Of a stretch of DNA of 64,000 nucleotides, positions 6,081 through 57,389 are shown piece by piece. The position numbers and the translations under genes were made by a program. The notes under the pieces are model-generated. The model did not search any database. It worked only from the letters and a program-made list of their open reading frames with translations, and had not been told where the DNA came from. Numbering within the stretch: position 1 is the first letter of the stretch; every line of letters starts with the position of its first letter. This DNA is from Terriglobia bacterium (lineage in GTDB: Bacteria; Acidobacteriota; Terriglobia; Bryobacterales; Bryobacteraceae): NCBI GenBank assembly GCA_963797245.1, contig CAWCPE010000016.1, positions 69,912 through 133,911 on the forward strand, given 5' to 3'.

Positions 6081-7223
6081 ATGCGGCGCCGTACGTTTCT
6101 CGAAGCGATTCCTTTGATGGCGAGTTCCATCGGCCAGGCGGCTACGCGCGATCGCGTCGTGATTGCTGGCGCGGGGATCATGGGCGCGTCCATCGGCTAT
6201 CATCTGGCGAAACGCGGCGCGCGGGTTACGATTCTTGAAAAAGAACGGCCCGGCGCGGGCGCGACTCAGAATTCGTTCGCCTGGATCAACGCGACGTTTT
6301 CAAAGCAGCCGCGGGCGTATTTCGATCTCAACATGGCCGGGATCGCGGGATGGCGGCGGTTGTCGCTCGAATTCGGGAATGAGTTGCAGATTCAGTGGGG
6401 CGGAAGCGTCGAATGGGTCGCGGCCGGCGCGGATTCTGAAAGACTTCGTTCCAACGTCAAGCGGCAGGAAGATTGGGGCTACGCCACCGAAATCATCGAC
6501 GCCGGCCGGATCGCCACGCTGCTTCCGCCGGTTTCTACGGGTCCAGTGGCTGCGGCGTGTTTCAGCGAAATCGAAGGAACGCTCGATCCGATGCACGCGC
6601 TGGGCGTGCTGCTGTCGAAGGCTCGCGCGGCGGGAGCCGACGTCCAGCATCCATGTGAAGTCACCGGTATTTCGATGTTCAATGGTCGCGTGAAAGCGGT
6701 CCAAACGTCGCGCGGGCCGATGGAAGCGGATTATTTTGTGATCGCCGCCGGAACCGGGACCACGGCGCTGGCCCGCATGGCGGAGGTCAACGTGCCGTTG
6801 AAGGAATCGCCGGGGGCGCTCGCGCACACGCGTCCCATGAAGCGGCTGCTCAATCACGTCGCGCTCGCTCCGGGTGCGACCATCAAGCAGAATCCGGATG
6901 GCCGCATTGTCACGGGGACCGACTTCGGAGGGTCGCCGATTACGGAAGCCTCGCGCGAGTACGGAATGAAGCTGCTGCGCAATGCATCGCGATTTTTGCC
7001 GGCGCTCGATTCGGCGGAACTCGAAGTCACCACGCTGGGACATCGCGTGCTGCCTCGCGACGAATATCCGGTGGTCGGGTTCGCGCGTTCGAATCTGTAC
7101 GTCGCGGCCATGCACAGCGGCATCACGCTTTCCCCGCTGATCGGGCAGGTGGCCGCGATGGAGATTCTGGACGGCGCGGATGTCGATTTGTTGAAGACGT
7201 TTCGTCCGTCGCGTTTTGCTTAA
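6081..7223 (+). CDS. FAD-dependent oxidoreductase (DAO family) with Tat-like signal
   Basis: MRRRTFLEAIPLMASS twin-arginine-like N-terminus. Dinucleotide fold VVIAGAGIMGASIGYHLAKRGARVTILEK. DAO-family length and C-terminal blocks. Confidence 0.75.
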   Translation: MRRRTFLEAIPLMASSIGQAATRDRVVIAGAGIMGASIGYHLAKRGARVTILEKERPGAGATQNSFAWINATFSKQPRAYFDLNMAGIAGWRRLSLEFGNELQIQWGGSVEWVAAGADSERLRSNVKRQEDWGYATEIIDAGRIATLLPPVSTGPVAAACFSEIEGTLDPMHALGVLLSKARAAGADVQHPCEVTGISMFNGRVKAVQTSRGPMEADYFVIAAGTGTTALARMAEVNVPLKESPGALAHTRPMKRLLNHVALAPGATIKQNPDGRIVTGTDFGGSPITEASREYGMKLLRNASRFLPALDSAELEVTTLGHRVLPRDEYPVVGFARSNLYVAAMHSGITLSPLIGQVAAMEILDGADVDLLKTFRPSRFA

Positions 7224-7229
7224 CTTCAA

Positions 7230-8081
7230 GTGTTATGCTCGGGTCAGGATCGCCACATGCGCGTGCGGCAGGCTTTTGGACGAGGTGCAATCGGGCTCGC
7301 CTTCGCGTGCGCGGCGCTGGCGTTTCAACGGCCGTTCCACCAATTCCCGGGAGTCGAATATCCGTCGTTCGAAGTGCCTGAGGACTGGAACCACAACGCT
7401 GAATTCGCTTTCGCGCGCCTCATGTATCCGCCGGGGCCGCTGGACGGCTACTATCCGCGCTATCAAGGCGACTGGCGGCGCGGGCTGTCGCTGTGGACGC
7501 AGGATTATCCGCGCGCCGATCGCCACTTTTCGCGGGCGCTGCAGCGTCTGACTCGCCTAAGCGTTCGCAGCGTGGAGCAGCCGGTGATGCTCGAAGACGG
7601 CGATGAAGCGTTCAACTGGCCGTGGCTTTACGCGGTGCAGGTGGGCGAGTGGGGATTGAATGAAGACGAAGCCCGCATCCTGCGCGAATACCTGCTGCGC
7701 GGCGGATTTTTCATGGCCGACGATTTCCACGGCGTCGACGAGTGGAACGAATTCGAGAAGCGCATCAAGTTCGTCTTTCCCGACCGGCCGATTGTGGAGA
7801 TCGACGACAAAGACCCGATTTTTCACACCGTGTACGATCTGGACGACAAGATCCAAGTGCCCGGCCAGGCGCACCTGCGGCTGGGCTACAAGAACAACGG
7901 CATCGGCGCGCACTGGCGCGGAATTTACGATGACAAGGGCCGCGTGATGGTCGCGATTTCCTACAACTCGGATTTGGGCGACGCGTGGGAGTACGCGGAC
8001 GATCCGTATTACCCGGAGAAATTTTCGGGGCTGGCGATCCGGATTGGCGTCAATTATGTCATCTACGCGATGACGCATTAG
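7230..8081 (+). CDS. DUF4159-like domain protein
   Basis: 283-aa ORF. The pattern FARLMYP...W..DYPRADRHF...FFMADDFHG recalled from DUF4159 proteins. Family assignment is from memory only. Confidence 0.45.
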   Translation: MLCSGQDRHMRVRQAFGRGAIGLAFACAALAFQRPFHQFPGVEYPSFEVPEDWNHNAEFAFARLMYPPGPLDGYYPRYQGDWRRGLSLWTQDYPRADRHFSRALQRLTRLSVRSVEQPVMLEDGDEAFNWPWLYAVQVGEWGLNEDEARILREYLLRGGFFMADDFHGVDEWNEFEKRIKFVFPDRPIVEIDDKDPIFHTVYDLDDKIQVPGQAHLRLGYKNNGIGAHWRGIYDDKGRVMVAISYNSDLGDAWEYADDPYYPEKFSGLAIRIGVNYVIYAMTH

Positions 8082-8085
8082 CGTT

Positions 8086-8154
8086 CACAGCCGCGGATCC
8101 ACGCGGATAAATGATGGTCTCATCGGCGTGAATCCGCGTGAATCCGCGGCTCTG
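8086..8154. repeat. Palindromic intergenic repeat, family E copy 1
   Basis: Arms CACAGCCGCGGATCCACGCGGATAA and CGTGAATCCGCGTGAATCCGCGGCTCTG form an imperfect inverted repeat. Same CGCGGATTCACGCGGATAA-type motif as at 47841-47912. Confidence 0.7.
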
Positions 8155-8170
8155 ATATCCTGACTGCAGA

Positions 8171-14551: not shown

Positions 14552-14600
14552 CTTTCTATTATCCGCCGAAGGCCCCCTCTCAAGCTATGAGTCATTCCTT

Positions 14601-14714
14601 AGGAGCTTGTTGAAAAAGGGGACAGACCGCTCTGTCCACGCCGGAGGCTGCTTCTGCAATCAGACGTTTGCGATCGGGGACAGAGTAGTCTGTCCCCTTT
14701 TTCAACAAGCTCTT
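14601..14714. repeat. Structured palindromic repeat, family B copy 1
   Basis: AGGAGCTTGTTGAAAAAGGGGACAGA...TCTGTCCCCTTTTTCAACAAGCTCTT. Near-identical copy at 41977-42089 (6 substitutions and 1 indel by manual alignment). Outer inverted repeat plus two inner GGACAGA/TCTGTCC hairpins. Confidence 0.85.
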
Positions 14715-14835
14715 AGTACTGATACCTCATACAAATCCCTCTAGTACTAGACATTAGGGGTACCCCATACTACGGCGTTATTGGTACCTATGACCTAAAG
14801 ACAGGACGCCGGTTTAGCCGATATAAGAGAACAGA

Positions 14836-20761: not shown

Positions 20762-20872
20762 GTGGCGCACGCACTCGTGCGTGCCGTGTCGAGACTCGTC
20801 TCGACACCTCGTCTGCGCCAGAACAGGCGTCGGCAAGGGTGCCGACGCGGCACGCAGGAGTGCGTGCGCCAC
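20762..20872. repeat. Structured palindromic repeat, family A copy 1
   Basis: 111 nt, with 100/111 positions identical to 51292-51402 by manual alignment. Outer ~25-bp inverted repeat GTGGCGCACGCACTC.TGCGTGCCG plus two inner hairpins (GTGTCGAGA/TCTCGACAC and GTCGGCA/TGCCGAC). Confidence 0.85.
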
Positions 20873-34309: not shown

Positions 34310-34397
34310 GGACGGCGGATTTCAATCCGCGTGGCGCTTCAGCGCCGCTGTACGGAAGCGAGGCTGAAGCCTCGCGCGGGCTCGAAGCCCGCCGTCC
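34310..34397. repeat. Multi-hairpin palindromic repeat, family C copy 1
   Basis: GGACGGCGGA...CCCGCCGTCC contains four short hairpins with TTCA/TGAA-type loops. A second copy lies at 41862-41952, with compensatory stem changes. Confidence 0.8.
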
Positions 34398-34442: not shown

Positions 34443-34505
34443 CTTGCTGACGCGCGCGGTTCCGCAGGGCGCCAAACAGAACCGCGACCGTCAGGGAGCG
34501 GAGCA
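34443..34505. repeat. Palindromic repeat, family D copy (GAACCGCGACCGTCAGGGAGCGGAGC type)
   Basis: Imperfect hairpin whose right arm CAGAACCGCGACCGTCAGGGAGCGGAGC closely matches 49717-49742 and is related to the arms at 49579-49603 and 46091-46175. Confidence 0.65.
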
Positions 34506-37973: not shown

Positions 37974-38050
37974 CGGGGCGTGGCTCAGCCTGGTAGAGCG
38001 CCTGGTTCGGGACCAGGAGGCCGGTGGTTCGAATCCACTCGCCCCGACCA
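37974..38050 (+). tRNA. tRNA-Pro (anticodon CGG)
   Basis: Manual cloverleaf: acceptor CGGGGCG/CGCCCCG, D arm GCTC-AGCCTGGTA-GAGC, anticodon arm CCTGG-TTCGGGA-CCAGG (CGG, G37), T arm GGTGG-TTCGAAT-CCACT, discriminator A, encoded CCA. Confidence 0.9.
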
Positions 38051-41861: not shown

Positions 41862-41952
41862 GGACGGCGGACTTCAGTCCGGGCGGGGCTTCAGCCCCGC
41901 ATCTGCATGAGTTGCGAAGCTGAAGCTTCGCGCGGGATGAATCCCGCCGTCC
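41862..41952. repeat. Multi-hairpin palindromic repeat, family C copy 2
   Basis: Same ends as 34310-34397 (GGACGGCGGA...CCCGCCGTCC) and the same four-hairpin layout. Confidence 0.8.
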
Positions 41953-41976
41953 AAACAACCCGAAGTCCGGGACACT

Positions 41977-42089
41977 AGGAGCTTGTTGAAAAAGGGGACA
42001 GACCGCTCTGTCCACGCCGGAGGCTGCCTTTGCAATTAGAGGTTTGCGATGGGGGACAGAGTAGTCTGTCCCCTTTTCAACAAGCTCCT
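41977..42089. repeat. Structured palindromic repeat, family B copy 2
   Basis: Near-identical to 14601-14714. Lies directly adjacent to family C copy 2 in a convergent intergenic region. Confidence 0.85.
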
Positions 42090-45537: not shown

Positions 45538-46076
45538 AAAAAATATTCGTACCTTCGCTTCTCCTTGTGGCGGTTTTAGCTCTGACCGCTGCCACTTCCG
45601 GGCCGCGCGTGAGCCGGGGGACCCTGGCGAGCATGGAAAAGAGTCTCGATGAGCGCATCCAGAGCTTGTGGAACGATACTCCGTATCTGCTGCTGGGCAC
45701 CACGCGCGGCGTTTATCTGGAGGGCTACGGAGCGGTGTTCACGGCGGAAGTGAACCTGGTGATGAACCCGGTGGGGCTGATGAACACGCGGATCACTAAG
45801 GAAGAAATCGCGAAAGTGCGGCAAAAGAAGCTCGACCGGATTCCGGTGCTGAAGAAGACGCTGCGGGATTCGATGGGCGCCATGGCATCGTCGCTCGACA
45901 CGGTGCCGGGTGACGAACAGATCGCCATCGTGGCGTTTATCGACCACTATCCGTGGGAGGACGTCACCGGCGTTCCGGTGCAAATCACGCTGACGGCGCA
46001 GAAAAAGAAGCTGGTGGAGGCGCAGCGCGCCGGCGGCGCGGGATTAGACGCTGCCATTCACGTGACGGAAAATTAA
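45534..46076 (+). CDS. Secreted hypothetical protein co-transcribed with the sigma/anti-sigma pair
   Basis: ATG at 45534 overlaps the anti-sigma stop (ATGA). Signal peptide MKKIFVPSLLLVAVLALTAA. No family recognised. Confidence 0.6.
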   Translation: MKKIFVPSLLLVAVLALTAATSGPRVSRGTLASMEKSLDERIQSLWNDTPYLLLGTTRGVYLEGYGAVFTAEVNLVMNPVGLMNTRITKEEIAKVRQKKLDRIPVLKKTLRDSMGAMASSLDTVPGDEQIAIVAFIDHYPWEDVTGVPVQITLTAQKKKLVEAQRAGGAGLDAAIHVTEN

Positions 46077-46090
46077 GGATGGCGGCGTCG

Positions 46091-46175
46091 TTTAACCGCT
46101 CCCTTTGGTCGCGGCTCGGGTCGGCTGTTGTGAGATTCGCGCGCAACGAGCCGCGACCAAAGGGAGCGGTTTAAA
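46091..46175. repeat. Long near-perfect hairpin (family D-related) upstream of gspE
   Basis: Arms TTTAACCGCTCCCTTTGGTCGCGGCTCG (46091-46118) and CGAGCCGCGACCAAAGGGAGCGGTTTAAA (46147-46175). Shares the CGCTCCCT..GGTCGCGG core with 49579-49603. Confidence 0.75.
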
Positions 46176-46196
46176 GATGTCGTTCCACTCATTCTG

Positions 46197-47834
46197 ATGC
46201 GCCTGGGCGAGATCCTCATCGAGCGGCACCTGCTGACGCAGGAGGATGTGGATCGCGCGCTCGAATTGCAGCGCGAGCGCGGCGACAAAATCGGCAAAAT
46301 TCTGGTCGACATGGGATTCGTCGCCATGCGCGACGTGCTCTCGGCGCTCGGCCAGCAGCTGGAGGTTCCGGTGCTCGCGATCGATGGTCCGCCCGCGATC
46401 TCGCCTGAAACCGAATCGCTCTCGCCCAAATTCCTGCGCCAGTTCCGCTGCCTGCCGGTGGCGCTGCACGATCACACGGTGACGCTCGCCATGGCCGATC
46501 CGAACGATTTCGAGACCCGCGCGACCGTTTCCGCATGCACCGGTTTGACAGTCCGGCCGGGGATTGCGGTGGAGCAGGAAATCCTGGACGCGATCGACCG
46601 CTTCTACGGTCAGGCTGAGAAACCCGGCGACGAAATCGCCGTGGGCACCGGCGAAGCCGACGAGAATCTGGAACACCTTCGCGACATGGCGAGCGAAGCG
46701 CCGGTCATTCGCCTGGTGAACGCGATGATCGCGCAGGCGCTTGAACAGCGCGCGAGCGACATTCATATCGAGCCGTTTGAAAAAGAATTCCGCGTCCGGT
46801 ACCGGATCGACGGCGTGCTGGTCAGCCAGGATTCGCCGGCGCGCGAGCTGAAGGCCGCCATCATTTCCCGCGTGAAGCTGATGGCCAAGCTGAACATCGC
46901 CGAGCGCCGGCTGCCGCAGGACGGCCGCATCAAAATCAAAGTGCTCGGCCGCGAAGTGGATTTGCGCGTTTCGACGCTGCCCACTCTCTACGGCGAATCG
47001 GTGGTGATGCGCCTGCTCGACCGTTCGGCCGGCGATTTTTACGATCTCGAACGGCTGGGCTTCGACCCGTACATGCTGTCCCGCATGGAATATTACACGT
47101 CCCTGCCGCACGGAATTTTCATGGTGACCGGCCCCACCGGCAGCGGAAAATCGACCACGCTGTATTCCGCGCTCAAGCGCATCAATGGCGCCGACAAGAA
47201 AATCATCACGATCGAAGATCCGGTCGAATATCAGATGGACGGGATCAACCAGATTCACGTCAATCCGCAAATCGGGCTGACCTTCGCGGCCGGATTACGA
47301 CATATCGTAAGACAAGACCCGGATGTGATCATGGTCGGCGAAATTCGCGACCGGGAGACGGCCGATATCGCGATCCGCGCAGCATTGACCGGGCATTTCG
47401 TGTACTCGACGCTGCATACCAACGACGCGCCCAGCGCGATTTCGCGGCTGACCGACATGGGCGTCGAAAATTACCTGATCACATCATCCGTGGTGGGCGT
47501 TTTAGCCCAGCGGCTGGTGCGCGTGATCTGTAAACACTGCAAAGCTCCGGCGGGAACCGCGACGACGCCGGATGGCGAGCAGATCGGCGTGTTTCGCGGC
47601 GCGGGCTGCGAGGAATGTTTCGGCACAGGGTTTCGAGGGCGCATCGGAATTTTCGAATTGATGGATCTGAACGAGGACTTGCGCGCGTCCATCATGCGGA
47701 ATGAGGATGCGACCAAAATCACCGCGATCGCGCGGCGGCAGGGAATGAGAAACCTGCGCGAGGATGGCTGGCTGAAAATCGCGCGCGGGGTGACGACCAC
47801 GGAAGAAGTGATGCGGGTGACGCAGGAGTTTTGA
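46197..47834 (+). CDS. gspE: Type II secretion ATPase GspE
   Basis: N-terminal T2SSE_N-like domain (MRLGEILIERHLLTQEDVDRALELQ), Walker A GPTGSGKST, Asp/His boxes, and the tetracysteine CKHC...CEEC motif. Confidence 0.9.
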   Translation: MRLGEILIERHLLTQEDVDRALELQRERGDKIGKILVDMGFVAMRDVLSALGQQLEVPVLAIDGPPAISPETESLSPKFLRQFRCLPVALHDHTVTLAMADPNDFETRATVSACTGLTVRPGIAVEQEILDAIDRFYGQAEKPGDEIAVGTGEADENLEHLRDMASEAPVIRLVNAMIAQALEQRASDIHIEPFEKEFRVRYRIDGVLVSQDSPARELKAAIISRVKLMAKLNIAERRLPQDGRIKIKVLGREVDLRVSTLPTLYGESVVMRLLDRSAGDFYDLERLGFDPYMLSRMEYYTSLPHGIFMVTGPTGSGKSTTLYSALKRINGADKKIITIEDPVEYQMDGINQIHVNPQIGLTFAAGLRHIVRQDPDVIMVGEIRDRETADIAIRAALTGHFVYSTLHTNDAPSAISRLTDMGVENYLITSSVVGVLAQRLVRVICKHCKAPAGTATTPDGEQIGVFRGAGCEECFGTGFRGRIGIFELMDLNEDLRASIMRNEDATKITAIARRQGMRNLREDGWLKIARGVTTTEEVMRVTQEF

Positions 47835-47840
47835 GAATGG

Positions 47841-47912
47841 CCACAGATACACGCGGATTCACGCGGATAAGAAACCATATTTTTATCTGCGTGTATCAGC
47901 GTGTATCTGTGG
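47841..47912. repeat. Palindromic intergenic repeat, family E copy 2 (gspE-gspF junction)
   Basis: CCACAGATACACGCGGATTCACGCGGATAA / TTATCTGCGTGTATCAGCGTGTATCTGTGG is an imperfect 30-bp inverted repeat, related to 8086-8154. Confidence 0.75.
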
Positions 47913-47925
47913 CTAAGAATCTCTG

Positions 47926-49137
47926 ATGGCGACGACTTTTCATTTTCGGGCGGTGGCTTCCGACGGGAAGGTGCGAACCGGCACGGTTACTGCGGACAAC
48001 GACAAGTCGGTCGCGCGGGAGCTGAAGCGGCAGGGATTGATTCCGGTCTACGTCGGACTCGAACAGAAAAAAGGGTTCGACCTCCAGATCCCCACATTCG
48101 ATCGCGGCAAGCGGCGCGACGTGTTGTTCTTCACGCAGGAGCTTTCGACGCTGCTCAATGCCGGAATTCCGCTCGATCGAGCGATTTCGATCACGGCCGA
48201 GCTCAGCGACCGCCGCTCGTTCCGGTCGCTGGTGATGGACGTTTTGCGGGTGCTCAAAGGCGGCAAATCGCTGGCCGACAGCCTGGCCACCCATCCGGCG
48301 CATTTTTCCGAGCTGTACATTAATATGGTCCGCGCGGGCGAAGCTTCCGGATCGCTCTCGCAGATTTTCGAGAGACTCTCCGAATTCGAGCGCACGCGCG
48401 ACGATTTGCGCGGATACATTATCAGCTCGCTGATCTATCCCGCGCTTCTGACGCTGGTGGGCATCGGGTCGATCCTGGTGTTGCTGAATTTCGTGGTGCC
48501 GCGGTTTGCTTCGATTTTTTCCGACCCGCGCATGAAAATTCCTACGCCGACCGCGATGCTGCTCGACGCGAGTTGGGTGGTGCAGACCTACGGACCCGCG
48601 GCATCCATCGCGCTGGCGGTCGCCTTCGTCGCGTTTCAGGCCTACATTCGAACCGTGGCCGGGCGCATGTGGTGGGACACGTTTCGATTGAAGCTGCCGC
48701 TGCTGGGCGACGCGCTGCGCAAAGCCGAGACGGCGCGATTCGCGCGTGCCATGGCGACGCTGGTGGCGGCCAGCGTGCCGCTGGTGCAGTCGCTCGGAAT
48801 CTCGCGCGGGATTTTGAATAACCGGAGAATCGCCGGATCGCTCGAAGCGATCGCGCAGGGAGTGAAGCGCGGTGAAGGCATCGCGGCGCCGCTGACCCGC
48901 GCAGGCGAATTTCCGCCGCTGGCCGGGCATCTGCTGGCGGTCGGCGAAGAGACCGGCCATCTCGACACCATGTTCAATCGCATGGCGGATATTTACGACA
49001 ACGAAACCCGCACGGCCATCCGGCGATTCACTTCGCTGTTTGAGCCGCTGATCATCCTGGTGATGGGACTGATCGTGGGAACATTGATTCTGAGCCTGAT
49101 GCTGGCGATCACCAGCATTAATGACGTGGCGGTGTAA
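47926..49137 (+). CDS. gspF: Type II secretion inner-membrane platform protein GspF
   Basis: 403 aa with two T2SSF repeats (FTQELSTLLNAGIPLDRAI... and FARAMATLVAASVPLVQSL...) and three TM regions. Confidence 0.9.
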   Translation: MATTFHFRAVASDGKVRTGTVTADNDKSVARELKRQGLIPVYVGLEQKKGFDLQIPTFDRGKRRDVLFFTQELSTLLNAGIPLDRAISITAELSDRRSFRSLVMDVLRVLKGGKSLADSLATHPAHFSELYINMVRAGEASGSLSQIFERLSEFERTRDDLRGYIISSLIYPALLTLVGIGSILVLLNFVVPRFASIFSDPRMKIPTPTAMLLDASWVVQTYGPAASIALAVAFVAFQAYIRTVAGRMWWDTFRLKLPLLGDALRKAETARFARAMATLVAASVPLVQSLGISRGILNNRRIAGSLEAIAQGVKRGEGIAAPLTRAGEFPPLAGHLLAVGEETGHLDTMFNRMADIYDNETRTAIRRFTSLFEPLIILVMGLIVGTLILSLMLAITSINDVAV

Positions 49138-49139
49138 AT

Positions 49140-49571
49140 ATGAATCGCAGAAGAAAATCTCAAAGCGGTATCACGCTGATTGAAATGCTGGTGGTGGTGA
49201 CCATCATTGCGCTGTTCGCGGCGCTGGTGGCTCCCCGCATGATGGGCAAGGCGGACGCGGCGCGCCACACCCAAGCGCACGCGCAGGTCAATTCCTTCAT
49301 GACCGCGCTGGGCGCCTACAAGCTGGACACGGGAACCTTTCCGACCACCGATCAGGGTCTAAACGCACTGCGCGTGAAGCCGGAAAATGCCAACCAATGG
49401 GCGGGACCGTATCTGCCGCAGGACATCCCGATGGATCCGTGGGGCCATCCGTATCTATATAAATATCCGGGTGAGCATGGCGACGAACCGGACGTGATCT
49501 CGCTCGGCGCCGACGGCGCGCCGGGTGGGGAAGGGAATAATGCCGACATCGTCAGCTGGAAGAATAACTAA
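49140..49571 (+). CDS. gspG: Major pseudopilin GspG
   Basis: Prepilin leader MNRRRKSQSG followed by ITLIEMLVVVTIIALFAAL. GspG signature region (GPYLPQDIPMDPWGHPYLYKYPGEHGDEPDVISLGADGAPGGEG). Confidence 0.9.
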   Translation: MNRRRKSQSGITLIEMLVVVTIIALFAALVAPRMMGKADAARHTQAHAQVNSFMTALGAYKLDTGTFPTTDQGLNALRVKPENANQWAGPYLPQDIPMDPWGHPYLYKYPGEHGDEPDVISLGADGAPGGEGNNADIVSWKNN

Positions 49572-49578
49572 GAACCTT

Positions 49579-49641
49579 GCTCCGCTCCCTGGTCGCGGTT
49601 CCGATTGGTGCTCTAACGGAACCGGGCCCGTGAGCGGTTGC
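49579..49641. repeat. Palindromic repeat, family D copy (first of two between gspG and gspH-like)
   Basis: GCTCCGCTCCCTGGTCGCGGTTCCG ... CGGAACCGGGCCCGTGAGCGGTTGC form an imperfect hairpin. Confidence 0.65.
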
Positions 49642-50196
49642 GCGAAGACTCCAGACCTGCTCCCCTCGCTGACGCTCAGGGTTCTGCAAGCCGCTCGTTC
49701 GACGGCTCGCCAAACAGAACCCCGACCGTCAGGGAGGGGAGCTCCGTTTTCACGTCGCGTCGTCAACGAACGCGGCGTCACGCTGATCGAGATGTTGATC
49801 GTGGTGACGCTGATCGCGCTGGTGGCCGGGATCAGTTTTCCGTCGATTGCTTCGGGCGTCGAATCGCTGCGGCTGCGGTCGGCGTCAGATGCCATGGTCG
49901 CGTTTTTCAACACGGCTCTCGATCATGCCGACCGGCGGCAGCAGGCCATTGAGATCCGTATTTCACCCAAGGAAAACCTGCTCACCGCGCGGTCGGCCGA
50001 TAACGGCTTCGCGCGCGAGCTGCATCTTCCGGACAACGTCAGCATTGCGAATCCCACTGAGCCTCGCCGGTTTCTGCTGTATCCGGGCGGGTCGGTTCCC
50101 GCGATTCAGGTCGAACTGGCGACCCACGGCGGACGGCATCGCCGGGTTTCGGTCGATCCGATTACGGGCGTTTCAAAATCGGAAGCGGTTCAATGA
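49630..50196 (+). CDS. gspH: Minor pseudopilin, GspH-like; start codon uncertain
   Basis: Prepilin motif NERG/VTLIEMLIVVTLIALVAGISFP, with the mature part starting at ~49777, and a GspH-like C-terminus. No ATG/GTG/TTG lies between the repeats and the cleavage site. In-frame candidates are GTG 49630, ATG 49540 and GTG 49525. Confidence 0.6.
   Translation: MSGCAKTPDLLPSLTLRVLQAARSTARQTEPRPSGRGAPFSRRVVNERGVTLIEMLIVVTLIALVAGISFPSIASGVESLRLRSASDAMVAFFNTALDHADRRQQAIEIRISPKENLLTARSADNGFARELHLPDNVSIANPTEPRRFLLYPGGSVPAIQVELATHGGRHRRVSVDPITGVSKSEAVQ
49659..49742. repeat. Palindromic repeat, family D copy (second of two between gspG and gspH-like)
   Basis: GCTCCCCTCGCTGACGCTCAGGGTTCTG ... CAGAACCCCGACCGTCAGGGAGGGGAGC. 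The right arm matches 34478-34505. Confidence 0.7.
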
Positions 50197-50609
50197 AGCA
50201 GTCTCAGCGCGGATTCACGCTGCTCGAAGTTCTGGTGGCGACGGCCATCATGGGAATCGCGGTCGCCGGCGTCCTCAATAATCTGGCGAACTCGGCGCGT
50301 AACGCGGCCCGCCTTACGGCTTACGATCGGGCGACGCTGCTCGCCAAATCGAAAATGGACGAGCTGATCGCCAACCAGAAAATCCCGCGCAAGGTTCCGA
50401 TCGAAGGAACGTTCGACCCGGCGATGGCCGGCGGAGCGGCGGGATGGCGCGCGACCGTGACCCCGTTTGAAACGGCCCAGGGCGCGGGGCCGGGAATGTG
50501 GGTGCTCGACCGGATTCAACTCGAAATCTGGTGGATGGATGGGCCAATCCGGCATGCGTTTTCGCTCGAAGCCTACCGGCGCGGCATCCTCCAGCCCGGG
50601 GATATATGA
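50193..50609 (+). CDS. gspI: Minor pseudopilin, GspI-like
   Basis: MKQSQRG/FTLLEVLVATAIMGIAVAGVL prepilin motif, 138 aa. ATGA overlaps at both ends. Confidence 0.75.
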   Translation: MKQSQRGFTLLEVLVATAIMGIAVAGVLNNLANSARNAARLTAYDRATLLAKSKMDELIANQKIPRKVPIEGTFDPAMAGGAAGWRATVTPFETAQGAGPGMWVLDRIQLEIWWMDGPIRHAFSLEAYRRGILQPGDI

Positions 50610-51290
50610 AAGAGCGCGGTTTCACGCTCATAGAAATGATGATCGCGATTACGCTGGTTGCGGCGATTTCGACCACCATGCTGTTCGCCATCCGAGCCGG
50701 GCTGATTACGCTGCAGAAGGTGGACGACCGGTTGATGTCTAACCGCCGGGTGATGAGTGTCGAGCGCATTGTGCGCGAATCAACTGGGCGGTGTGATGCC
50801 GGTGATCGGCTATTGCTCCGACAATACGCAGATGCCGATTTTCAATGGCAGTGACCAGACGCTGCACCTGGTGACCAGTTATTCGCTTGCGGAGGGCGCC
50901 CGCGGGTATCCTCACATCGTGGAATTGCAGGTGCTTCCGGCCGACGGCGGCGGAGTCCGGCTGATCGCCAATGAATTTCTGTACGGCGGCCCGTATTCGA
51001 CCGCGCCGTTCTGCGCGGGCAACGCTTTCCGGGTGGGCGTCGCGACGCCGCAATCCTTCGTGATCGCCGACCGTCTGGCGTACTGCCACATTTCGTATCA
51101 GGATCGTGACCCGTCCACTTACATGGGGACGGTCTGGCTGCCGCAGTGGAGCAAGACGAATCTTCCAGCCGCGGTGCATGTGGAGATGGCGCCGCTGATT
51201 CCCGATCCGGCTCGCCTGCCGCTGGTGAGCGTCACCGTTCCGATTCACATTAATCGCGATGTCAATGCGCCTTATACCGATTCACAATAA
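50606..51290 (+). pseudogene. gspJ: Minor pseudopilin, GspJ-like, with apparent +1 frameshift near 50777
   Basis: MKERG/FTLIEMMIAITLVAAIS opens at 50606, and that frame stops at 50854 after R-rich sequence. The +1 frame is open from 50757 to 51290 with normal composition (NQLGGVMPVIGYCSDNTQMPIFNGSDQTLHLV...). Joining them near 50777 gives one ~227-aa pseudopilin. Confidence 0.6.
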
Positions 51291-51291
51291 A

Positions 51292-51402
51292 GTGGCGCAC
51301 GCACTCCTGCGTGCCGTGTCGAGACCCATCTCGACACCTCTGCTGCGCCCGAACAATCGTCGGCATGAGTGCCGACGCAGCACGCAGGAGTGCGTGCGCC
51401 AC
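51292..51402. repeat. Structured palindromic repeat, family A copy 2 (gspJ-gspK junction)
   Basis: Begins 2 nt after the gspJ-like stop (TAA 51288-51290) and ends where the GspK hydrophobic N-terminus begins. 100/111 identical to 20762-20872. Confidence 0.85.
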
Positions 51403-52413
51403 GGGGAACGCGGGGGAGCGCTGCTTACCGTGCTATGGCTTTCCGCGGCGCTGGCGGCGATTGCGTTTTCGGTGGCGACCAGCGTCCGATCCGAGACGGA
51501 TCGGGTGGGCTCCGCCTCGGACGGTTTGCGCGCCTGGTATCTGGCGGAGGGATCGGTCGAACGCGGCATCCAGTGGATGCTGTGGGGACCTTCGGTGACC
51601 AACCCGGACGGCTCGCCCCGCTGGCGGCCGAACCTGCCGCGGATGATCATGCACTATCCGAGCGGCGACGCCGTGGTCGAGATGATTCCGGAATCGGCCA
51701 AGCTGAACATCAACACCGCGTCGGCTGATGACTTGACGCGGGTGGTCACCGTGGTTTCGGGCGACCCGGCGCGCGCCGCGCAGATTGTCGCCGCAATCCT
51801 CGACTGGCGCGGGGCGTCGGCCAGCCCAACCGTCTTTGATCAATATTACTTAACCCTCGGTCCGACTTTCCGGGCGCGGCATGCGTCATTTCAAGAGATC
51901 GAGGAACTCCTGCTGGTGCAAGGCATGACGCCCGAATTGTTCTACGGCAACTACATTCCGGATTCCGCGGGCCGGCTGTACGCCTCCGGCGGGCTGCGCG
52001 ATTGCCTGTCGGTGTGGGGCAGCCAGGGGCCGTTCGATATCAACACCGCGAGCCCGGCGCTGATGGAAGCCGTGGGTATGACGCCGGACGCCATCACGGC
52101 CGTGGTCAAGTATCGAAATGCGCAGCCGTTCAACGGCATGGGCGACGTATCCACCTTAGGCGTTTCCGCACCGCGCATGACCGTCGGCGGGAATGTGATC
52201 TGGACGCTGCGCGCCACCGCGCGTCTGCGCCGGCCCGACGGCGGTCCGTCGGAATTCGTGCGGACCGCATCCGCTACCGTGAAGCTGCTGAATCCCGCCA
52301 CTTATTTCATGATGCCAGCGCACGTGCTGCGCTGGTACGACGATGCGTGGTCTGAATCGGCGCTGATTCCCCCCGCCGCGCCCGCGCCGGTTCCGGGAGC
52401 TCCCGCCCAATGA
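51394..52413 (+). CDS. gspK: Minor pseudopilin GspK
   Basis: The GTG at 51394 gives MRHGERGGALLTVLWLSAALAAIAFSV, a typical GspK N-terminus. Also KLNINTASADDL and DINTASPALMEAVGMTPD helix-hairpin-helix-like blocks. Track start 51259 would translate through the repeat. Confidence 0.75.
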   Translation: MRHGERGGALLTVLWLSAALAAIAFSVATSVRSETDRVGSASDGLRAWYLAEGSVERGIQWMLWGPSVTNPDGSPRWRPNLPRMIMHYPSGDAVVEMIPESAKLNINTASADDLTRVVTVVSGDPARAAQIVAAILDWRGASASPTVFDQYYLTLGPTFRARHASFQEIEELLLVQGMTPELFYGNYIPDSAGRLYASGGLRDCLSVWGSQGPFDINTASPALMEAVGMTPDAITAVVKYRNAQPFNGMGDVSTLGVSAPRMTVGGNVIWTLRATARLRRPDGGPSEFVRTASATVKLLNPATYFMMPAHVLRWYDDAWSESALIPPAAPAPVPGAPAQ

Positions 52414-53711
52414 TTCCAGCGGCGTTGAAGAAATTCGCCGCTTTCGGGAGCGGTATTGGAATCGAGATTACCGGCCCGCGCGGAGCCGAGTCTCTGCTCA
52501 TCACAGCCGTGCGCGTTCGGCCCACCGGCGCCAAGGTAACCGGCCGGCTGACGATCGAGAATTTTCCGCACCAGCCGGCGGGCGTGTGGGGCTCCGAGTA
52601 CGCCGCGCTGGTTCGCAAGCTGGATCTCCGGCACGTTCCCGCCATGGTCCTGCTGCCGCGGCAGGACGTCATTCTGCGGCAGCTCGTGCTGCCCGGCGTC
52701 GCCGATAAGGACCTCGAATCGGCCATCCAATTTCAGCTCGACGGCCTTCATCCGTATGCGGAAGATGACGTGGTGTGCAGTTGGGCGCGCCTTCCAGGAA
52801 CGCAAACCGTGTTGATCGCCATCGCGCGGCGCGCCGAAGTGGACCGCTACACTACGGCGTTTTCAGAAGCGGGCGTCAAGTTGGGAGGATTCACGTGCTC
52901 GGCCGCAGCGGTGTATTCCTCGTTGCGGCTTTCGGGCGCGACGCCTCCCGCGGCATTGCTCGCGTCCACGGAGACTGACGGATCGATCGAGATTTACGGC
53001 GAAAGCCCGGCGCATCCGCTGTTTTCAGCGCGCTTCGATTTGCCCGCGCCGCGCGCTGCCGAGCTGGCCTGCGCGGAATTAAGAATAGATCCAGGCATGG
53101 AACCGAAGCCTCTCGAATCGTTATTTCCACTTGGGATTTCGGGCGGCACCGCGCTCCCGTACTGCGCGGCACTCGCTTCGGCGTGCCCGCGGCTGTCGAT
53201 CGCTCTCAATCTTCTTCCCGCCGACCGCCGCGATACCAGCTCGCGGGCCGTGTGGATTCCGGCCGTCGCGCTGGCCGTGCTGGTGCTGATGCTGGCTGGC
53301 GCTCTATTTGCGCTGCCGGTTTATCAGGACCATCTTTACCAAAGATCGCTTCAATCCGAAATCGCCAAGGTGGAACCGGGTGCGCGCCGCGCGGTCACCG
53401 TGGAGCGGGAAATCGATACCGCGCGCAAGCGCACCATCCTGCTCGACGATTTCCGCAGGCGTTCGAAAGCCGACATGGATGTGATTCAGGAGATGACCCG
53501 TCTGCTTCCGCCGCAGGTCTGGCTGAATCTGCTGGACCTCAATCGCACCACCGTGTTTATCGCAGGGGAAACCGACCAGGCCGCGCCGCTTCTGAAGCTG
53601 ATCGACGGGTCGCCGTATTTTGAAGGCTCCGAGTTCGTCCAGCCGCCCATGCGGGCCGCTGCGGGTGGTGAAACCTTCCGGATCCGCACCAACCGGAGGG
53701 CAGGAAAGTGA
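52410..53711 (+). CDS. GspL-equivalent: PilM-like cytoplasmic domain fused to a PilN-like TM/periplasmic domain
   Basis: ATGA overlap with gspK. A ~280-aa cytoplasmic domain, TM segment VWIPAVALAVLVLMLAGALFAL, then a coiled and ferredoxin-like periplasmic part (VWLNLLDLNRTTVFIAGETDQAAPLLKLIDGSPYF). Assignment is by architecture and position. Confidence 0.55.
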   Translation: MIPAALKKFAAFGSGIGIEITGPRGAESLLITAVRVRPTGAKVTGRLTIENFPHQPAGVWGSEYAALVRKLDLRHVPAMVLLPRQDVILRQLVLPGVADKDLESAIQFQLDGLHPYAEDDVVCSWARLPGTQTVLIAIARRAEVDRYTTAFSEAGVKLGGFTCSAAAVYSSLRLSGATPPAALLASTETDGSIEIYGESPAHPLFSARFDLPAPRAAELACAELRIDPGMEPKPLESLFPLGISGGTALPYCAALASACPRLSIALNLLPADRRDTSSRAVWIPAVALAVLVLMLAGALFALPVYQDHLYQRSLQSEIAKVEPGARRAVTVEREIDTARKRTILLDDFRRRSKADMDVIQEMTRLLPPQVWLNLLDLNRTTVFIAGETDQAAPLLKLIDGSPYFEGSEFVQPPMRAAAGGETFRIRTNRRAGK

Positions 53712-53727
53712 TCGGGGGACATTGATA

Positions 53728-54324
53728 ATGGACCCCCGCCATCGCCGCATGCTGCCGGTGCTCGCCGGAATTCTGATCTTGGGCCTGGCGATCCGTTTCT
53801 GGCCGGAAAGCTCCTCGGCGCCCGCCGTGGTTGCTCCCACAGCCGATACCATCGCGGTGGCGGAACGGCGTCTCGCCAAGCTGCGTGAAACCGCGGCGAC
53901 CGTGCCGGCCCGCGAGAAGATCCGCAAGGACGCCGCGGCCGAGCTCGCCACGCGGGAAAAAGGAATGCTGATCGCCGAGACGTTCCAGCAGGCGCAGGCG
54001 CAGCTGATCCAGATTATTCGCGACCTGGGGCGCGCCGAGACGCCGATTGTCGAGATCCGCAATACCGAAGGCTTCGGAATCCGCCCGTTGGGCGACGCGT
54101 ACGGCGAAGCCACCGTCACCGTGCAGGTCGAATGCCGCATCGATCAACTGGTCAACATGCTGGCCGGCCTCGCCGCCCGTAAGGAGCTGGTTTCGACCAG
54201 TGACCTGCGCGTCAACTCGACCAACGCCAAGGAAAAGACCATCATGGTTCACCTGACCGTGGCGGGCGTGGTACCTCGGAAACTGGTGCCCGAGCGGATG
54301 TTGCAGCAGGAGAAACACACATGA
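53728..54324 (+). CDS. GspM/PilO-like bitopic assembly protein
   Basis: Start chosen at MDPRHRRMLPVLAGILILGLAIRFW (short cytoplasmic tail plus TM). The periplasmic domain ends TIMVHLTVAGVV. Assignment is by architecture and position. Confidence 0.45.
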   Translation: MDPRHRRMLPVLAGILILGLAIRFWPESSSAPAVVAPTADTIAVAERRLAKLRETAATVPAREKIRKDAAAELATREKGMLIAETFQQAQAQLIQIIRDLGRAETPIVEIRNTEGFGIRPLGDAYGEATVTVQVECRIDQLVNMLAGLAARKELVSTSDLRVNSTNAKEKTIMVHLTVAGVVPRKLVPERMLQQEKHT

Positions 54325-55082
54325 ACCGGAAGGCGTTGCTGCTCGATCTGGCTTTACTCGCACTGGCCGCCGTGCTGATCTGGCAGATCCGCCAGCGTTG
54401 GCTGGAAGGTCAGGCGCGGGACCGGGCGATTTTCACAAAGGCTGCTTCCAATATTGCGGTCAAGGTATTCGCGCCGCCCCCGGTTACCCCGCCCAAACAG
54501 GTGATTGCCGGCGATTACATCGACGTTGCGCAGAAAATGCTGTTTGCGAAAGACCGCAATCCCAACGTCCCGATCGAGCCTCCGCCTCCGCCGCCGGTCA
54601 AGCCGCCGCTGCCGCCGCTGCCGGCTTACTACGGCCAGATTACGTTCGGGGATCCGGTGGTGGTGCTCGCCGCGGGCAACGGGGGACAGAAGAGATATCA
54701 CGTCGGCGATAAAGTGGGGCCGTTCGAACTGGCCGCTTTCGATAACGAAAAAATCGTGCTGAAATGGCGCGACGAAACCGTGGAGCGCAAGCTGGCGGAT
54801 CTGAAGCCGAAAGACACCGCGCCTGCGCCGGCGGTTGCCCCGCGCGCCGCCGTTCCAGTGGCGCGGAACTCGTCCCAGACCAGCCTCAAGCAAATCGGTT
54901 CTTCATCGACCGAGGCCGGCTCGGACGCCAACAAGGGACCGCTCGGCGTCGATGTCGGAGGCGGATTTCGCGGCTGTACGCCGGGTGACTCGACGCCCGC
55001 CGGCAGCGTAGTCAACGGCTACAAAAAAGTGGTTTCGCAAGGCATGTTCGGTTCTGTCTGCCGCTGGGAGCAAGTCAAGTAA
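54321..55082 (+). CDS. GspC/PilP-like membrane-anchored protein with Pro-rich linker
   Basis: N-terminal TM segment, PPPPPPVKPPLPPLP linker, small beta domain (YHVGDKVGPFELAAFDNEKIVLKW), directly upstream of the secretin. Assignment is by architecture and position. Confidence 0.4.
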   Translation: MNRKALLLDLALLALAAVLIWQIRQRWLEGQARDRAIFTKAASNIAVKVFAPPPVTPPKQVIAGDYIDVAQKMLFAKDRNPNVPIEPPPPPPVKPPLPPLPAYYGQITFGDPVVVLAAGNGGQKRYHVGDKVGPFELAAFDNEKIVLKWRDETVERKLADLKPKDTAPAPAVAPRAAVPVARNSSQTSLKQIGSSSTEAGSDANKGPLGVDVGGGFRGCTPGDSTPAGSVVNGYKKVVSQGMFGSVCRWEQVK

Positions 55083-57389
55083 ATGCGTTTAAATCCATAT
55101 TTAGCGTTCCTGTTCCTGATGGCGTCGGCTGCATGGGCCCAGCCGCCCGCCGCTCCGCCGCCGCAGCCTCCCGCGGCGCAACCGGTTCCTCCACCTGCCA
55201 CGCCGCAAGCGCCCGCCACCGCGCCGCAGGCGCCCGCCGGACCGGTGCAGATGGGCGGTTTGAATCTGCAGAACGTCTCGCTCACCGAGGTGATCGATCA
55301 GCTCGCCAAGCAACTGCACCTCAACTACATCATCGACCCCACCATTGCCAAAGCCGGCGTGACGATGAACACCTACGGCGATCCTCGAACGCTGGACGCG
55401 CGCAATTTGCTCGAGCAGATCCTTCGCATCAACGGACTTGGGATGGTGGAAGCCGGCGGTTTGTACCGCATCGTTCCATTGAAGGAAATTTCGCATCAGC
55501 CGCTGCCTCTCCAGCGGGAATTGAACGGCCAGGCGATCCCGGACGACGACCAGCTCATGCTGAACGTCATCTTCCTCAAGTACGTCTCAGTGGAGGAACT
55601 GTCCAAGGTGCTGAGCGAGTTCATCGGCGAAAACGCGCAGTTGATCACCTACGCGCCGGCTAACCTTCTGTTCATCCTCGACAGCCGGCGTAACATGCGC
55701 CGCACCATGGATCTGATCAGCCAGTTCGACAGCGACGCCTTTGTAAATCAGCGCGTGCATATCTTCGAGGTGCACAACGCCCGGCCTTCGGACCTGGTGA
55801 AGGACCTCGACAGTATCCTGAAATCGATTTCGCTCGATTCAAAGACCGGCACGGTCCGGTTTCTTCCGGTCGACCGCATCAACGAACTGATCGCCGTCGC
55901 GCCGAATCCAGGCGTGTTCACCACCATCGACCAATGGTTGTCGAAGCTCGACGTCCCTGTGAAGATCACGGCGGGAGCCACCGAAAATTACGTTTATCGC
56001 GTCAAGTACGGCCAGGCGCCGTGCCTGGCGCTGGCGCTCGGCGAGCTGTTCGGCAACTCGGCGAGCCGCGGGTACGGCGGTGGGTACGGGGGCTCTCCAT
56101 ACGGAGGCTCGGGCGGCGGTTATGGCGGCGGCTACGGCGGCGGTTATGGCGGGGGTTACCAATCATCGCCTTACGGCGGAGGGTATGGCGGCGGTTACCA
56201 GTCGTCGCCCTATGGCGGCGGATACGGCGGAGGTTTCGGAGGTGGAAGCAATCCCGGCGGCTACGGAAACGCGACCGGTTTCTCATCCCAATTCGGGGGC
56301 CAGGGCGCCTGCGCCGGCGGCGGATATGGCGGTCAGCAACAGGGTTACGGAGCACCCGCTTTTGGCGGATATTCGGCGCAGTACCCGGCCGGCAATCCCC
56401 TGGGCGCCACCGGGCAGACGTTGGGCGCCGCTCAGCCGAATGCGCTTGGCGGGGTTGGCGCGCAACTTGGAACGGCGGGAACACCGGGCGCCCCGGTGGT
56501 GAGGCCTCCGCGCATCGTCCCCAACCCGCTCGATAACGCACTGCTGATCCAGGCCGACGCCCAGCAGTATCAGGGCATTATGAAGATGCTCAAGGAACTG
56601 GATATTCCCCCTCGCCAGATTCTGCTCGAAGCCAAGATTTACGAAGTAGATCTCACCGACCAGTTCGCCGCGGGCGTGACCTACAATCTTCAGCAAGCCA
56701 GCGGTCCCGTCGCCAAACCCACCGCGATTCTCGATGCGACCGGCCTCGGGACCTTCAACGTCGGCACACTGGTAGGCAGCAGCCGCGCGCTCCTCGCGCA
56801 ACTTACCTTGAATGAAAACCGCTCCCACGTCCACATGGTGTCCGAACCGAGCCTGATCGCCACCGACAGCATTCCGGCGTCGATCAACGTGGGCGACCAG
56901 GTTCCGGTCACCACCGGGACCACCGTCATTCCCTCGGGCGGCAACGTGGTCTCTTCGCAAAGCATCTCTTCGCAGAATACCGGCGTGACGCTCCAGGTGA
57001 ACGCGCGCGTGGCGCCGAGCGGCGTGGTCACGCTTTACATCGGCCAGCAGATCAGCGCGATCGATGGCAGTGTTAATACCGGTACCGGCACGCCGGCCTT
57101 CAGCCAGCAGGTGGTCCAGACGCAGATTACTTTGATGGATGGCGATACCATCGCCATCGGCGGGACGATTTCCGATTCAGTCACCGACTCGGTCACCGGC
57201 ATTCCCGGGCTGGTGAATCTGCCCTGGATCGGCGCATTGTTCGGGCAGAAAACCAAGGTGCACTCGCGGACCGAACTGATCATGTTCATGACGCCGCACG
57301 TCATCCTCGACGAGACCAACCTGATCGAGGCGAGCGACGAATTGAAAGCCCGCGTCAAGATGCTGCGCCGCTACATCCGTGGCGAGTGA
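55083..57389 (+). CDS. gspD: Secretin GspD with large Gly/Tyr-rich insertion
   Basis: Signal peptide and Pro-rich stretch. N0/N1-like blocks (LNLQNVSLTEVIDQLAKQLHLNYIID). Secretin core (ILLEAKIYEVDL...SEPSLIATDSIPASINVGDQVP...TGIPGLVNLPWIGALFG...ELIMFMTPHVI). Confidence 0.9.
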   Translation: MRLNPYLAFLFLMASAAWAQPPAAPPPQPPAAQPVPPPATPQAPATAPQAPAGPVQMGGLNLQNVSLTEVIDQLAKQLHLNYIIDPTIAKAGVTMNTYGDPRTLDARNLLEQILRINGLGMVEAGGLYRIVPLKEISHQPLPLQRELNGQAIPDDDQLMLNVIFLKYVSVEELSKVLSEFIGENAQLITYAPANLLFILDSRRNMRRTMDLISQFDSDAFVNQRVHIFEVHNARPSDLVKDLDSILKSISLDSKTGTVRFLPVDRINELIAVAPNPGVFTTIDQWLSKLDVPVKITAGATENYVYRVKYGQAPCLALALGELFGNSASRGYGGGYGGSPYGGSGGGYGGGYGGGYGGGYQSSPYGGGYGGGYQSSPYGGGYGGGFGGGSNPGGYGNATGFSSQFGGQGACAGGGYGGQQQGYGAPAFGGYSAQYPAGNPLGATGQTLGAAQPNALGGVGAQLGTAGTPGAPVVRPPRIVPNPLDNALLIQADAQQYQGIMKMLKELDIPPRQILLEAKIYEVDLTDQFAAGVTYNLQQASGPVAKPTAILDATGLGTFNVGTLVGSSRALLAQLTLNENRSHVHMVSEPSLIATDSIPASINVGDQVPVTTGTTVIPSGGNVVSSQSISSQNTGVTLQVNARVAPSGVVTLYIGQQISAIDGSVNTGTGTPAFSQQVVQTQITLMDGDTIAIGGTISDSVTDSVTGIPGLVNLPWIGALFGQKTKVHSRTELIMFMTPHVILDETNLIEASDELKARVKMLRRYIRGE

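Follow-up and report, generated by a model that had tools for sequence, protein, structure and literature searches.

Palindromic repeats in a type II secretion operon of Bryobacteraceae: probable mobile elements, apparently retained where translation can pass from gene to gene

The window analysed here is a stretch of 64,000 nucleotides from a Terriglobia bacterium of the family Bryobacteraceae (Acidobacteriota; GenBank assembly GCA_963797245.1, contig CAWCPE010000016.1, positions 69,912 to 133,911), which carries on its plus strand a type II secretion system (T2SS) operon with five long hairpins, hereafter E1, E2, E3a, E3b and E4, at four of its gene junctions. I argue that these hairpins are probably mobile repeats of the repetitive extragenic palindromic (REP) type, in part paired into REP doublets (REPINs), and that they are selfish or near-neutral passengers. 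Repeats of this kind, from at least three families common in Bryobacterales, would insert lineage-specifically into a translationally coupled operon, where an insertion would survive only if ribosomes can still travel from cistron to cistron, either through an in-frame insert in a leader peptide or over an upstream open reading frame (uORF).

All five hairpins, first noticed in a sequence-only reading of the window, are borne out at the coordinates then proposed, with folding z-scores between -4.2 and -12.3 when each element is compared as RNA with 200 dinucleotide shuffles. E1 (46091-46175; z = -8.5, stem of ~25 bp) consists of two inverted 27-nt units (CCGCTCCCTTTGGTCGCGGCTCG) and occupies the spacer between an upstream open reading frame (ORF; stop codon at 46074-46076) and gspE (ATG at 46197). 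E2 (47840-47913; z = -12.3), the arms of which are tandem 10-mers (GATACACGCG / GATTCACGCG), lies between gspE (stop at 47832-47834) and gspF (ATG at 47926). At the gspG/gspH junction stand E3a (49579-49641; z = -4.2), which is degenerate, and E3b (49659-49742; z = -7.4), a variant with CCCCTCCCTGACGGTCGGGGTTC. E4 (51292-51402; z = -9.8), at the gspJ/gspK junction, is a REPIN of 111 nt, i.e. 37 codons, in which a 23-bp outer stem made of two inverted REPs (GTGG-C-GCACGCA-CTCC-TGCGTGC) encloses two inner hairpins. The elements belong to three families, namely A (E1, E3a and E3b), B (E2) and C (E4). E1 and E3 form one family and not two, because a 22-nt core, CCGCTCCCT-N2-3-GGTCGCGGYTC, is common to E1, E3a, E3b and a further copy at 34445; the strict family-A pattern is matched by both arms of E1, and the core by the 5' arm of E3a.

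Every family had been thought to possess another copy in the window. This holds for E4, which is 90% identical to a second family-C REPIN located between convergent genes (20762-20872; z = -8.9; a 23-bp outer stem likewise built of two inverted REPs), and for E3b, to which a degenerate family-A hairpin at 34445-34505 is related (3' arm matching the core exactly, weak fold with z = -1.95). E2 has only a loosely related counterpart, the family-B-like hairpin at 8085-8155 with its tandem GGATCCACGC / GAATCCGCGT units (z = -7.1), and no separate copy of E1 was found in the window by BLAST. In its 64 kb the window has two family-C and four family-A copies, the family-A units lying at 46096-46169, 49580-49739 and 34479-34501. 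Some five of the roughly 14 long hairpins of the window fall within 5.3 kb of operon, a figure that is no more than suggestive of an enrichment relative to the rest of the window, since the intergenic space is not comparable.

Orthologous operons were collected via GspE homologues, and a further 80 operon fragments came from scanning metagenomes with GspG; the loci are designated by L numbers. The comparison with relatives lacking the insertions, which the sequence-only reading had proposed, is informative: in L127 (GspE 86%) all four junctions are empty, gspE and gspF being separated by 3 nt, gspH overlapping gspG and gspK overlapping gspJ, while three junctions are empty in L005 (GspE 85%) and two in L004 (GspE 86%). 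L003, L125 and L126 (GspE 93-94%) carry different elements at the same junctions, among them mini-hairpins with CTTCAG loops upstream of gspE and a GGAGACAGCCGG hairpin at gspJ/gspK. The E1 site has an orthologous copy in L201 and is empty in L004, L005, L126, L127 and most other operons. The gspE/gspF junction, empty in L005 and L127, holds a diverged orthologue of E2 in L125, a GAATGAACAC-type hairpin in L126, and hairpins of GTCAGAA heptamers in L003 and L004; L134 and L181 are also of the heptamer type, and L126, L131 and L146 share the architecture of E2 with another sequence. At gspG/gspH relatives hold other copies of family A, or family A together with family C, the element of L125 being similar to E3b. 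It may be added that the gspE/gspF hairpins of the window, L003, L004, L126, L131, L134, L142, L146, L157 and L181 have their architecture in common and not their sequence, with arms of tandem 7-mers (GTCAGGA / GACAGAA) or 10-mers (GATTCACGCG, GAATGAACAC).

When a junction with an insertion of more than 40 nt is counted as occupied, occupancy across ~75 operons is 5/32 upstream of gspE, 16/48 at gspE/F, 7/75 at gspF/G, 19/74 at gspG/H, 4/63 at gspH/I, 7/47 at gspI/J, 8/32 at gspJ/K and 2/17 at the junction that follows gspK (K-L). The view that the insertions are targeted to intergenic boundaries is imprecise, for every junction is hit in one relative or another, and the inserts at pseudopilin junctions lie in leader-coding sequence (see below). 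Because relatives are either empty or furnished with unrelated hairpins, and because all junctions are hit, the elements are best regarded as recent, lineage-specific mobile insertions and not as conserved regulators; on this comparison, the window shows how a widespread process has turned out in a single lineage, and no design that is conserved.

The four sites had been described as intergenic. Upstream of gspE and between gspE and gspF there are indeed true spacers; at gspG/H and gspJ/K, E3a, E3b and E4 are inside coding sequence, because the start codons of gspH (49540) and gspK (51259 or 51265) lie within gspG and gspJ. The putative leader-coding region of gspH spans 49540-49773 on the plus strand, beginning with an ATG 32 nt ahead of the gspG stop and reaching up to the Gly (49774) of the prepilin motif G/VTLIEML, and its frame is stop-free through both E3a and E3b, with ~78 codons vs 18 in the empty L127, where the gspH start, ATGATGCCGAC, precedes the gspG stop by 35 nt and an 18-residue leader stands before G/VSLIE. 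The ATG at -32 relative to the gspG stop is conserved in most related operons, and no ATG, GTG or TTG occurs between E3b and the prepilin motif, the nearest in-frame GTG (49630) lying upstream of E3b. Likewise, the putative leader and N-terminal coding region of gspK (51259-51417, plus strand) runs from an ATG at 51259 or 51265, within the 3' end of gspJ, to ...ERGG/ALLTVLW, and the 37 codons of E4 are read in frame without a stop; gspK could alternatively start at GTG 51394, which the 3' arm of E4 supplies 3 nt downstream of AGGAG.

The same regularity is found among relatives. With near-identical loci removed, 13 of 15 inserts at gspG/H are in register with the -32 ATG (binomial P = 3e-5), and all 13 distinct gspJ/K junctions are in register (P about 6e-7), the gspK frame being open back into gspJ in 37/37 related operons. 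The frame of the gspH motif is stop-free in 15/15 inserts vs 11/30 for the other frames, and the downstream frame at gspJ/K in 13/13. Pooled over both junctions, 26/28 inserts are in register; in-frame inserts are also the rule at gspH/I (9/9) and gspI/J (9/10; together 18/19). Since the downstream frame is stop-free in 28/28 cases vs 24/56 control frames, the inserts at gspG/H and gspJ/K appear to be under selection to keep the reading frame, which is most simply explained if they form a translated portion of the leader peptide of the pseudopilin. XcpX/GspK is processed by the prepilin peptidase. Processing by this enzyme is documented for pseudopilins including GspK (PMC7777525). Because the peptidase cuts off pseudopilin leaders, the residues which E3a and E3b would add in frame to the leader of GspH, and E4 to that of GspK, would be discarded.

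In the two true spacers the reading frame is bridged in another manner. A uORF of 31 codons (46079-46174, plus strand) begins 2 nt after the upstream stop and runs over E1, and is followed by a second one of 6 codons (46177-46197, plus strand), the TGA of which overlaps the gspE ATG (TGATG). Two nucleotides separate the gspE stop from a uORF of 29 codons (47837-47926, plus strand), which spans E2 and closes with a TGA overlapping the gspF ATG (again TGATG). Among relatives, 5/5 occupied junctions upstream of gspE have an ORF with its start at most 8 nt from the upstream stop and its end in the interval from -14 to +22 nt relative to the gspE start. For gspE/F, where a relay uORF was taken as one starting at most 25 nt from the gspE stop and ending at most 8 nt from the gspF start, 9/15 distinct occupied junctions have one; when the spacers of these junctions are shuffled by dinucleotides, 1.37 are expected, and 0/200,000 simulated sets reached 9, a comparison in which independence is overstated, as some hairpins may share one ancestral insertion. 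Such a pattern is in keeping with selection for coupling by termination and reinitiation, which a uORF from the upstream stop to the downstream ATG would preserve across the insert.

As to the origin of the elements, family C provides the clearest link. Both arms of its outer stem form small REP hairpins of their own (GCACGCA-CTCC-TGCGTGC), headed by GTGG, and the consensus of five full copies from four genomes has 42 pairs, 9 of them with compensatory double changes, which are in the inner hairpins. The family occurs at no fewer than nine other loci of Bryobacterales or Terriglobia, and solo arms are also seen. REP-associated tyrosine transposase (RAYT) genes were searched for by tblastn with first probes that served as bait only, and the matches were then checked with Pfam and NCBIfam; matches were obtained only in L012, L149, L174, L196 and L200. 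In L012, a metagenome-assembled genome (MAG) of Bryobacteraceae, a frameshifted RAYT-like gene lies at 7150-7830 between inverted copies of the family-C REP plus hairpin 1; this gene was recognised by tblastn only, with 33-37% identity to the RAYTs of L149 and L196 and no Pfam match. From its sequence the arrangement appears to be the REPtron of family C, present in a related genome only, and E4 would presumably have been mobilised by a RAYT. The reading of the hairpins as selfish elements of REP or MITE type (miniature inverted-repeat transposable elements) is thus supported by three lines of evidence, i.e. families dispersed through the window and through Bryobacterales, empty orthologous sites, and the flanks of the L012 gene.

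The other RAYT genes sit within T2SS operons. The gene of L149 (3170-3679, minus strand; NCBIfam NF047646 with 86.8 bits, cut-off 80) lies between gspE and gspF, and that of L196 (1889-2434, plus strand; NF047646 with 73.5 bits against the same cut-off of 80, and Pfam Y1_Tnp) lies directly after gspG, as do those of L174 (1669-2070) and L200 (564-1001), both at the gspG/H junction. The genes of L149 and L196 are flanked by GACAG-type REP hairpins similar to the sub-hairpins of family D (see below). The RAYTs of L196, L174 and L200 share only 56-63% identity, a divergence suggesting that in one clade a RAYT has long been resident between gspG and gspH.

Family A is of a different make. Its unit is a sharply bounded 27-mer, A-CCGCTCCCT-N2-3-GGTCGCGGCTC-GG-W, present in more than 119 stretches in a scan of one genome per species; among the matches listed, hosts are mostly Bryobacterales, other Acidobacteriota and Planctomycetota, with few Legionellales and other phyla, and the 20 specified bases are identical across Bryobacterales, Planctomycetota, Legionellales and the few other phyla. 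Units occur singly (45%), as head-in pairs, i.e. hairpins (24%), or as tail-in pairs (34%), and the 3' half is iterated in tandem in some copies. All-against-all BLAST of the ORFs from the 119 loci revealed no protein family travelling with the unit, and the family-A 11-mers are absent from the literature-search matches listed. The unit is also found in 84 IMG/VR stretches, and the phage contigs L216 (1340-1730) and L228 (3790-4200), as well as L238, L261 and L282, carry tandem arrays of units and half-units, with a period of ~68 nt, between the genes for the terminase large subunit and the portal protein. A CRISPR (clustered regularly interspaced short palindromic repeats) reading of the L216 and L228 arrays was ruled out, the units of ~68 nt being in tandem and devoid of unique spacers. 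Such arrays might be a packaging or replication feature, or else a vehicle for horizontal spread.

A number of observations weigh against the explanation preferred here. No RAYT gene is found by tblastn in the 64-kb window, nor beside family A or B in the 119 loci, nor in 96 viral loci, and no transposase is demonstrated for families A and B; moreover, the single family-A unit shows no convincing internal palindrome and neither a GTAG nor a CGTC head. Three inserts have lost register and require new starts (L125 and L134 at gspG/H, L171 at gspI/J), and some of the metagenomic loci are related, so that the counts of junctions are not fully independent. The gspE/F, gspG/H and gspJ/K junctions are occupied in 25-33% of operons, above the others, which could mean function instead of tolerance. 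The predicted leaders, ~78 residues in GspH and ~53 in GspK, are long relative to the ~10-20 of relatives with empty sites. Finally, GspH may be dispensable (PulH; PMC7777525), which would weaken the case for selection at gspG/H.

It had been proposed that the hairpins could punctuate the mRNA for processing or stability and so set subunit stoichiometry. In the form considered here, they would have been selected because they stabilise the polycistronic mRNA, are processed or act as partial barriers, in the way of the malE-malF REP, and would thereby fix the amounts of GspE, GspF and GspG relative to the minor pseudopilins. In favour of this, the stems have great stability, a step-down after gspG, the gene of the major pseudopilin, would make sense, and the presence of unrelated hairpins at the same junctions across lineages (16/48, 19/74 and 8/32 at gspE/F, gspG/H and gspJ/K) could be convergent recruitment. 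The comparative data do not support this proposal, as neither occupancy nor sequence is conserved among close relatives: L127 is empty at four junctions and L005 at three, and no junction of the operon is spared in all lineages. The junctions also harbour RAYT genes in some relatives, and the compensatory changes by which family C preserves its structure are equally explained by RAYT recognition of single-stranded DNA hairpins. In addition, all five hairpins lack U-tails and none is called as a Rho-independent terminator, terminator-like sites in the window numbering 12 vs 12.5 +/- 4 in shuffles. Classical REP stabilisers sit in untranslated 3' regions, whereas here the hairpins would be unwound, because translating ribosomes would cross the open frames that span every element. 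Selected punctuation is consequently improbable. As regards the wider search for signals, intrinsic terminators and promoters are not above shuffle expectation and none falls on an element.

An alternative that takes translation into account is that the elements are portable initiation cassettes, gspH and gspK starting at codons within the REPs, as in AGGAG-TGC-GTG (51385-51396), with the sequence upstream of that start being an untranslated spacer. The 3' REP of E4, with its AGGAG and GTG, can act as a replacement start, and the gene callers applied to L001 and L002 do start gspK at GTG 51394 in the 3' arm of E4. In L125 a family-A insertion of 115 nt breaks register, and the GTG of a family-C element is the only nearby start for gspH (M-RAPGQAG/VTLLE); in L196 the REP located 3' of the RAYT gene provides AGGA-ATG for gspH (MPVLPSRG/VTLVE). 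Yet internal starts need no register with an upstream ATG, and 26/28 inserts at gspG/H and gspJ/K keep it; in the window, gspH could not start between E3b and its motif for want of a start codon, and GTG 49630, the closest one in frame, precedes E3b; and the spacing between AGGAG and GTG in E4 is only 3 nt, with both inside the 23-bp stem. Replacement starts seem to rescue the out-of-register cases and cannot explain the general in-register rule, and I regard the cassette as a rather unlikely account of the elements as a whole. That the hairpins are artefacts of assembly or sequencing, such as chimeric joins or foldback reads, can be dismissed as exceedingly improbable: the window is not free of probable indel errors or mutations, gspJ having an additional C at 50774, but two independent assemblies of the European Nucleotide Archive (ENA; L001 and L002) reproduce E1 to E4 without a single base difference, and homologous elements occur in many unrelated assemblies.

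The interpretation of the hairpins as mobile repeats has its closest parallel in the REP/REPIN-RAYT systems, as known from the REPs and bacterial interspersed mosaic elements (BIMEs) of E. coli and the REPINs of Pseudomonas, with which they share short palindromic units, single or in inverted pairs, that are probably dispersed in many copies. Family C resembles them further in its two inverted REP hairpins with a GT-G head and in that the same REPs flank a RAYT in L012, related T2SS operons also holding RAYTs with REPs of their own; its head is GTGG, whereas the canonical one is GTAG. Family B differs from these systems in its arms of tandem 7- or 10-mers, and family A in its poorly palindromic 27-nt unit, its lack of a RAYT link and its distribution across phyla. 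REPIN-RAYT systems, by contrast, are reported to be inherited mostly vertically (bioRxiv 10.1101/2022.05.22.493013).

Palindromes in frame within genes have precedents: Rickettsia palindromic elements (RPEs) are tolerated in frame inside genes, and intragenic REPs with GTAG/CGTC heads are often N-terminal in ORFs (Di Nocera et al. 2013, PMC3733652). E3a, E3b and E4 are likewise in frame, stop-free and inside protein-coding genes, although they belong to another phylum and have no sequence relationship to those elements; moreover, inserts concentrate here in the cleavable prepilin leaders of four consecutive pseudopilin genes, and the in-frame rule is shown statistically over dozens of orthologous junctions. 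In-frame palindromic elements and intragenic REPs being already known (PMC3733652), what would be added is that the inserts are constrained by translation.

The REP between malE and malF, the model behind the punctuation idea, is likewise a REP hairpin between cistrons of one operon; Newbury and colleagues are said to have described it in 1987 as a stabiliser of mRNA. It is untranslated and intercistronic, whereas each element of the window is spanned by an ORF and is not conserved in its presence among relatives. MITEs such as Correia/NEMIS, ERIC, RUP and Nezha are also small non-coding inverted repeats by or in genes, co-transcribed with them and sometimes supplying expression signals; here there is no clear target-site duplication and no parent with a DDE transposase was found, and the source of family C would be a REPtron with its RAYT rather than an insertion sequence (IS) with terminal inverted repeats. 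Indeed, no target-site duplication is seen in the sequence around E1, E3a, E3b and E4, and the flanks of E2 (ATGGCCAC / ATGGCGAC) match at 7/8 positions at the gspF start, ambiguously, as GCCAC belongs to the stem. Target-site duplications were rejected as evidence for a DDE-type MITE, this 8-mer being the only candidate.

The operon itself agrees with the gene order that had been read from the sequence, the identities of the genes being assigned by Pfam. All on the plus strand, it comprises gspE (46197-47834), gspF (47926-49137), gspG (49140-49571), three N-methyl pseudopilin genes of the gspH, I and J kind (49540 to 51290), gspK (51259 to 52413), a PilM/N-like gene (52410-53711), two small genes (53727 to 55082) and the secretin gene gspD (55083-57389); the junctions without hairpins overlap or abut, as had also been stated. 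At its 5' side there are genes for an extracytoplasmic function (ECF) sigma factor and an anti-sigma factor, and one gene of no assigned function. The closest named homologues of GspE are proteins of Bryobacteraceae MAGs, and the identical GspE is encoded on the two ENA metagenome contigs L001 and L002, the former being 99.95% identical to window positions 36195-57834. Relative to both contigs, in which gspJ is unbroken (227 aa), the extra C at 50774 splits the gspJ of the window (50606-50857 / 50757-51290); it would have arisen as an indel in the assembly or else as a frameshift specific to the strain. The secretin gene contains at 56070-56370 a Gly/Tyr-rich low-complexity insert (GGYGGGYGGGY...) encoded by direct repeats with a 12-nt period.

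Two more repeat families occur in the window. Family D consists of long-stem hairpins of ~115 nt at 14600-14717 and 41974-42089, which are 95% identical to each other (z = -12.4 and -10.4) and the arms of which contain the sub-hairpin GGACAGA-CCGC-TCTGTCC, resembling the REPs that flank the RAYTs of L149 and L196. Family G is a multi-hairpin repeat at 34310-34397 and 41862-41952 (z = -5.6 and -8.9) with an outer stem of GGACGGCGG/CCGCCGTCC and inner mini-hairpins with CTTCAG or CTGAAG loops; both copies lie in spacers beside flanking genes and are stacked next to another element, the first to family A (34445) and the second to family D (41974). Rfam has no family for the elements of A, B, C, D or G. 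At gathering scores, its search of the window gave no match on the hairpins, and by E-value these matched only models of miRNA precursors, below threshold, as generic long-hairpin noise. The sole RNA gene detected in the window by Rfam or ARAGORN is a tRNA-Pro (anticodon CGG) at 37974-38050.

One consequence concerns annotation. In L001 and L002 gspH is called from an internal ATG (window position 49792), by which the prepilin cleavage motif is lost, and gspK from GTG 51394 within E4. The pseudopilin genes of these MAGs look defective through their inserts; they are probably not defective, and the calls are probably a systematic mis-annotation.

In a limited literature search no description of REPs, REPINs or RAYTs in Acidobacteriota was found, and the present data add such material for this phylum, together with a repeat unit shared across phyla. 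On a broader and rather doubtful conjecture, which I offer tentatively, the REP repeats of Bryobacterales would be compatible with translation by their very make, with stop-free frames, loops that provide AGGAG or AGGA plus GTG or ATG, and ends that create uORFs, and would on this account be able to colonise coupled operons together with their RAYTs, pseudopilin leaders serving as safe harbours; the family-A unit would in turn be a cross-phylum module, carried by phages and perhaps spread horizontally by some enzyme.

To sum up, the operon may be viewed as a natural experiment in which selfish repeats invade a transcription unit without free intergenic space and only those insertions remain that preserve frame or coupling. 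Register and stop-freeness across orthologous junctions offer a simple comparative test of whether a repeat at a gene junction is coding, and the leader peptides of prepilin-like proteins may tolerate large insertions.

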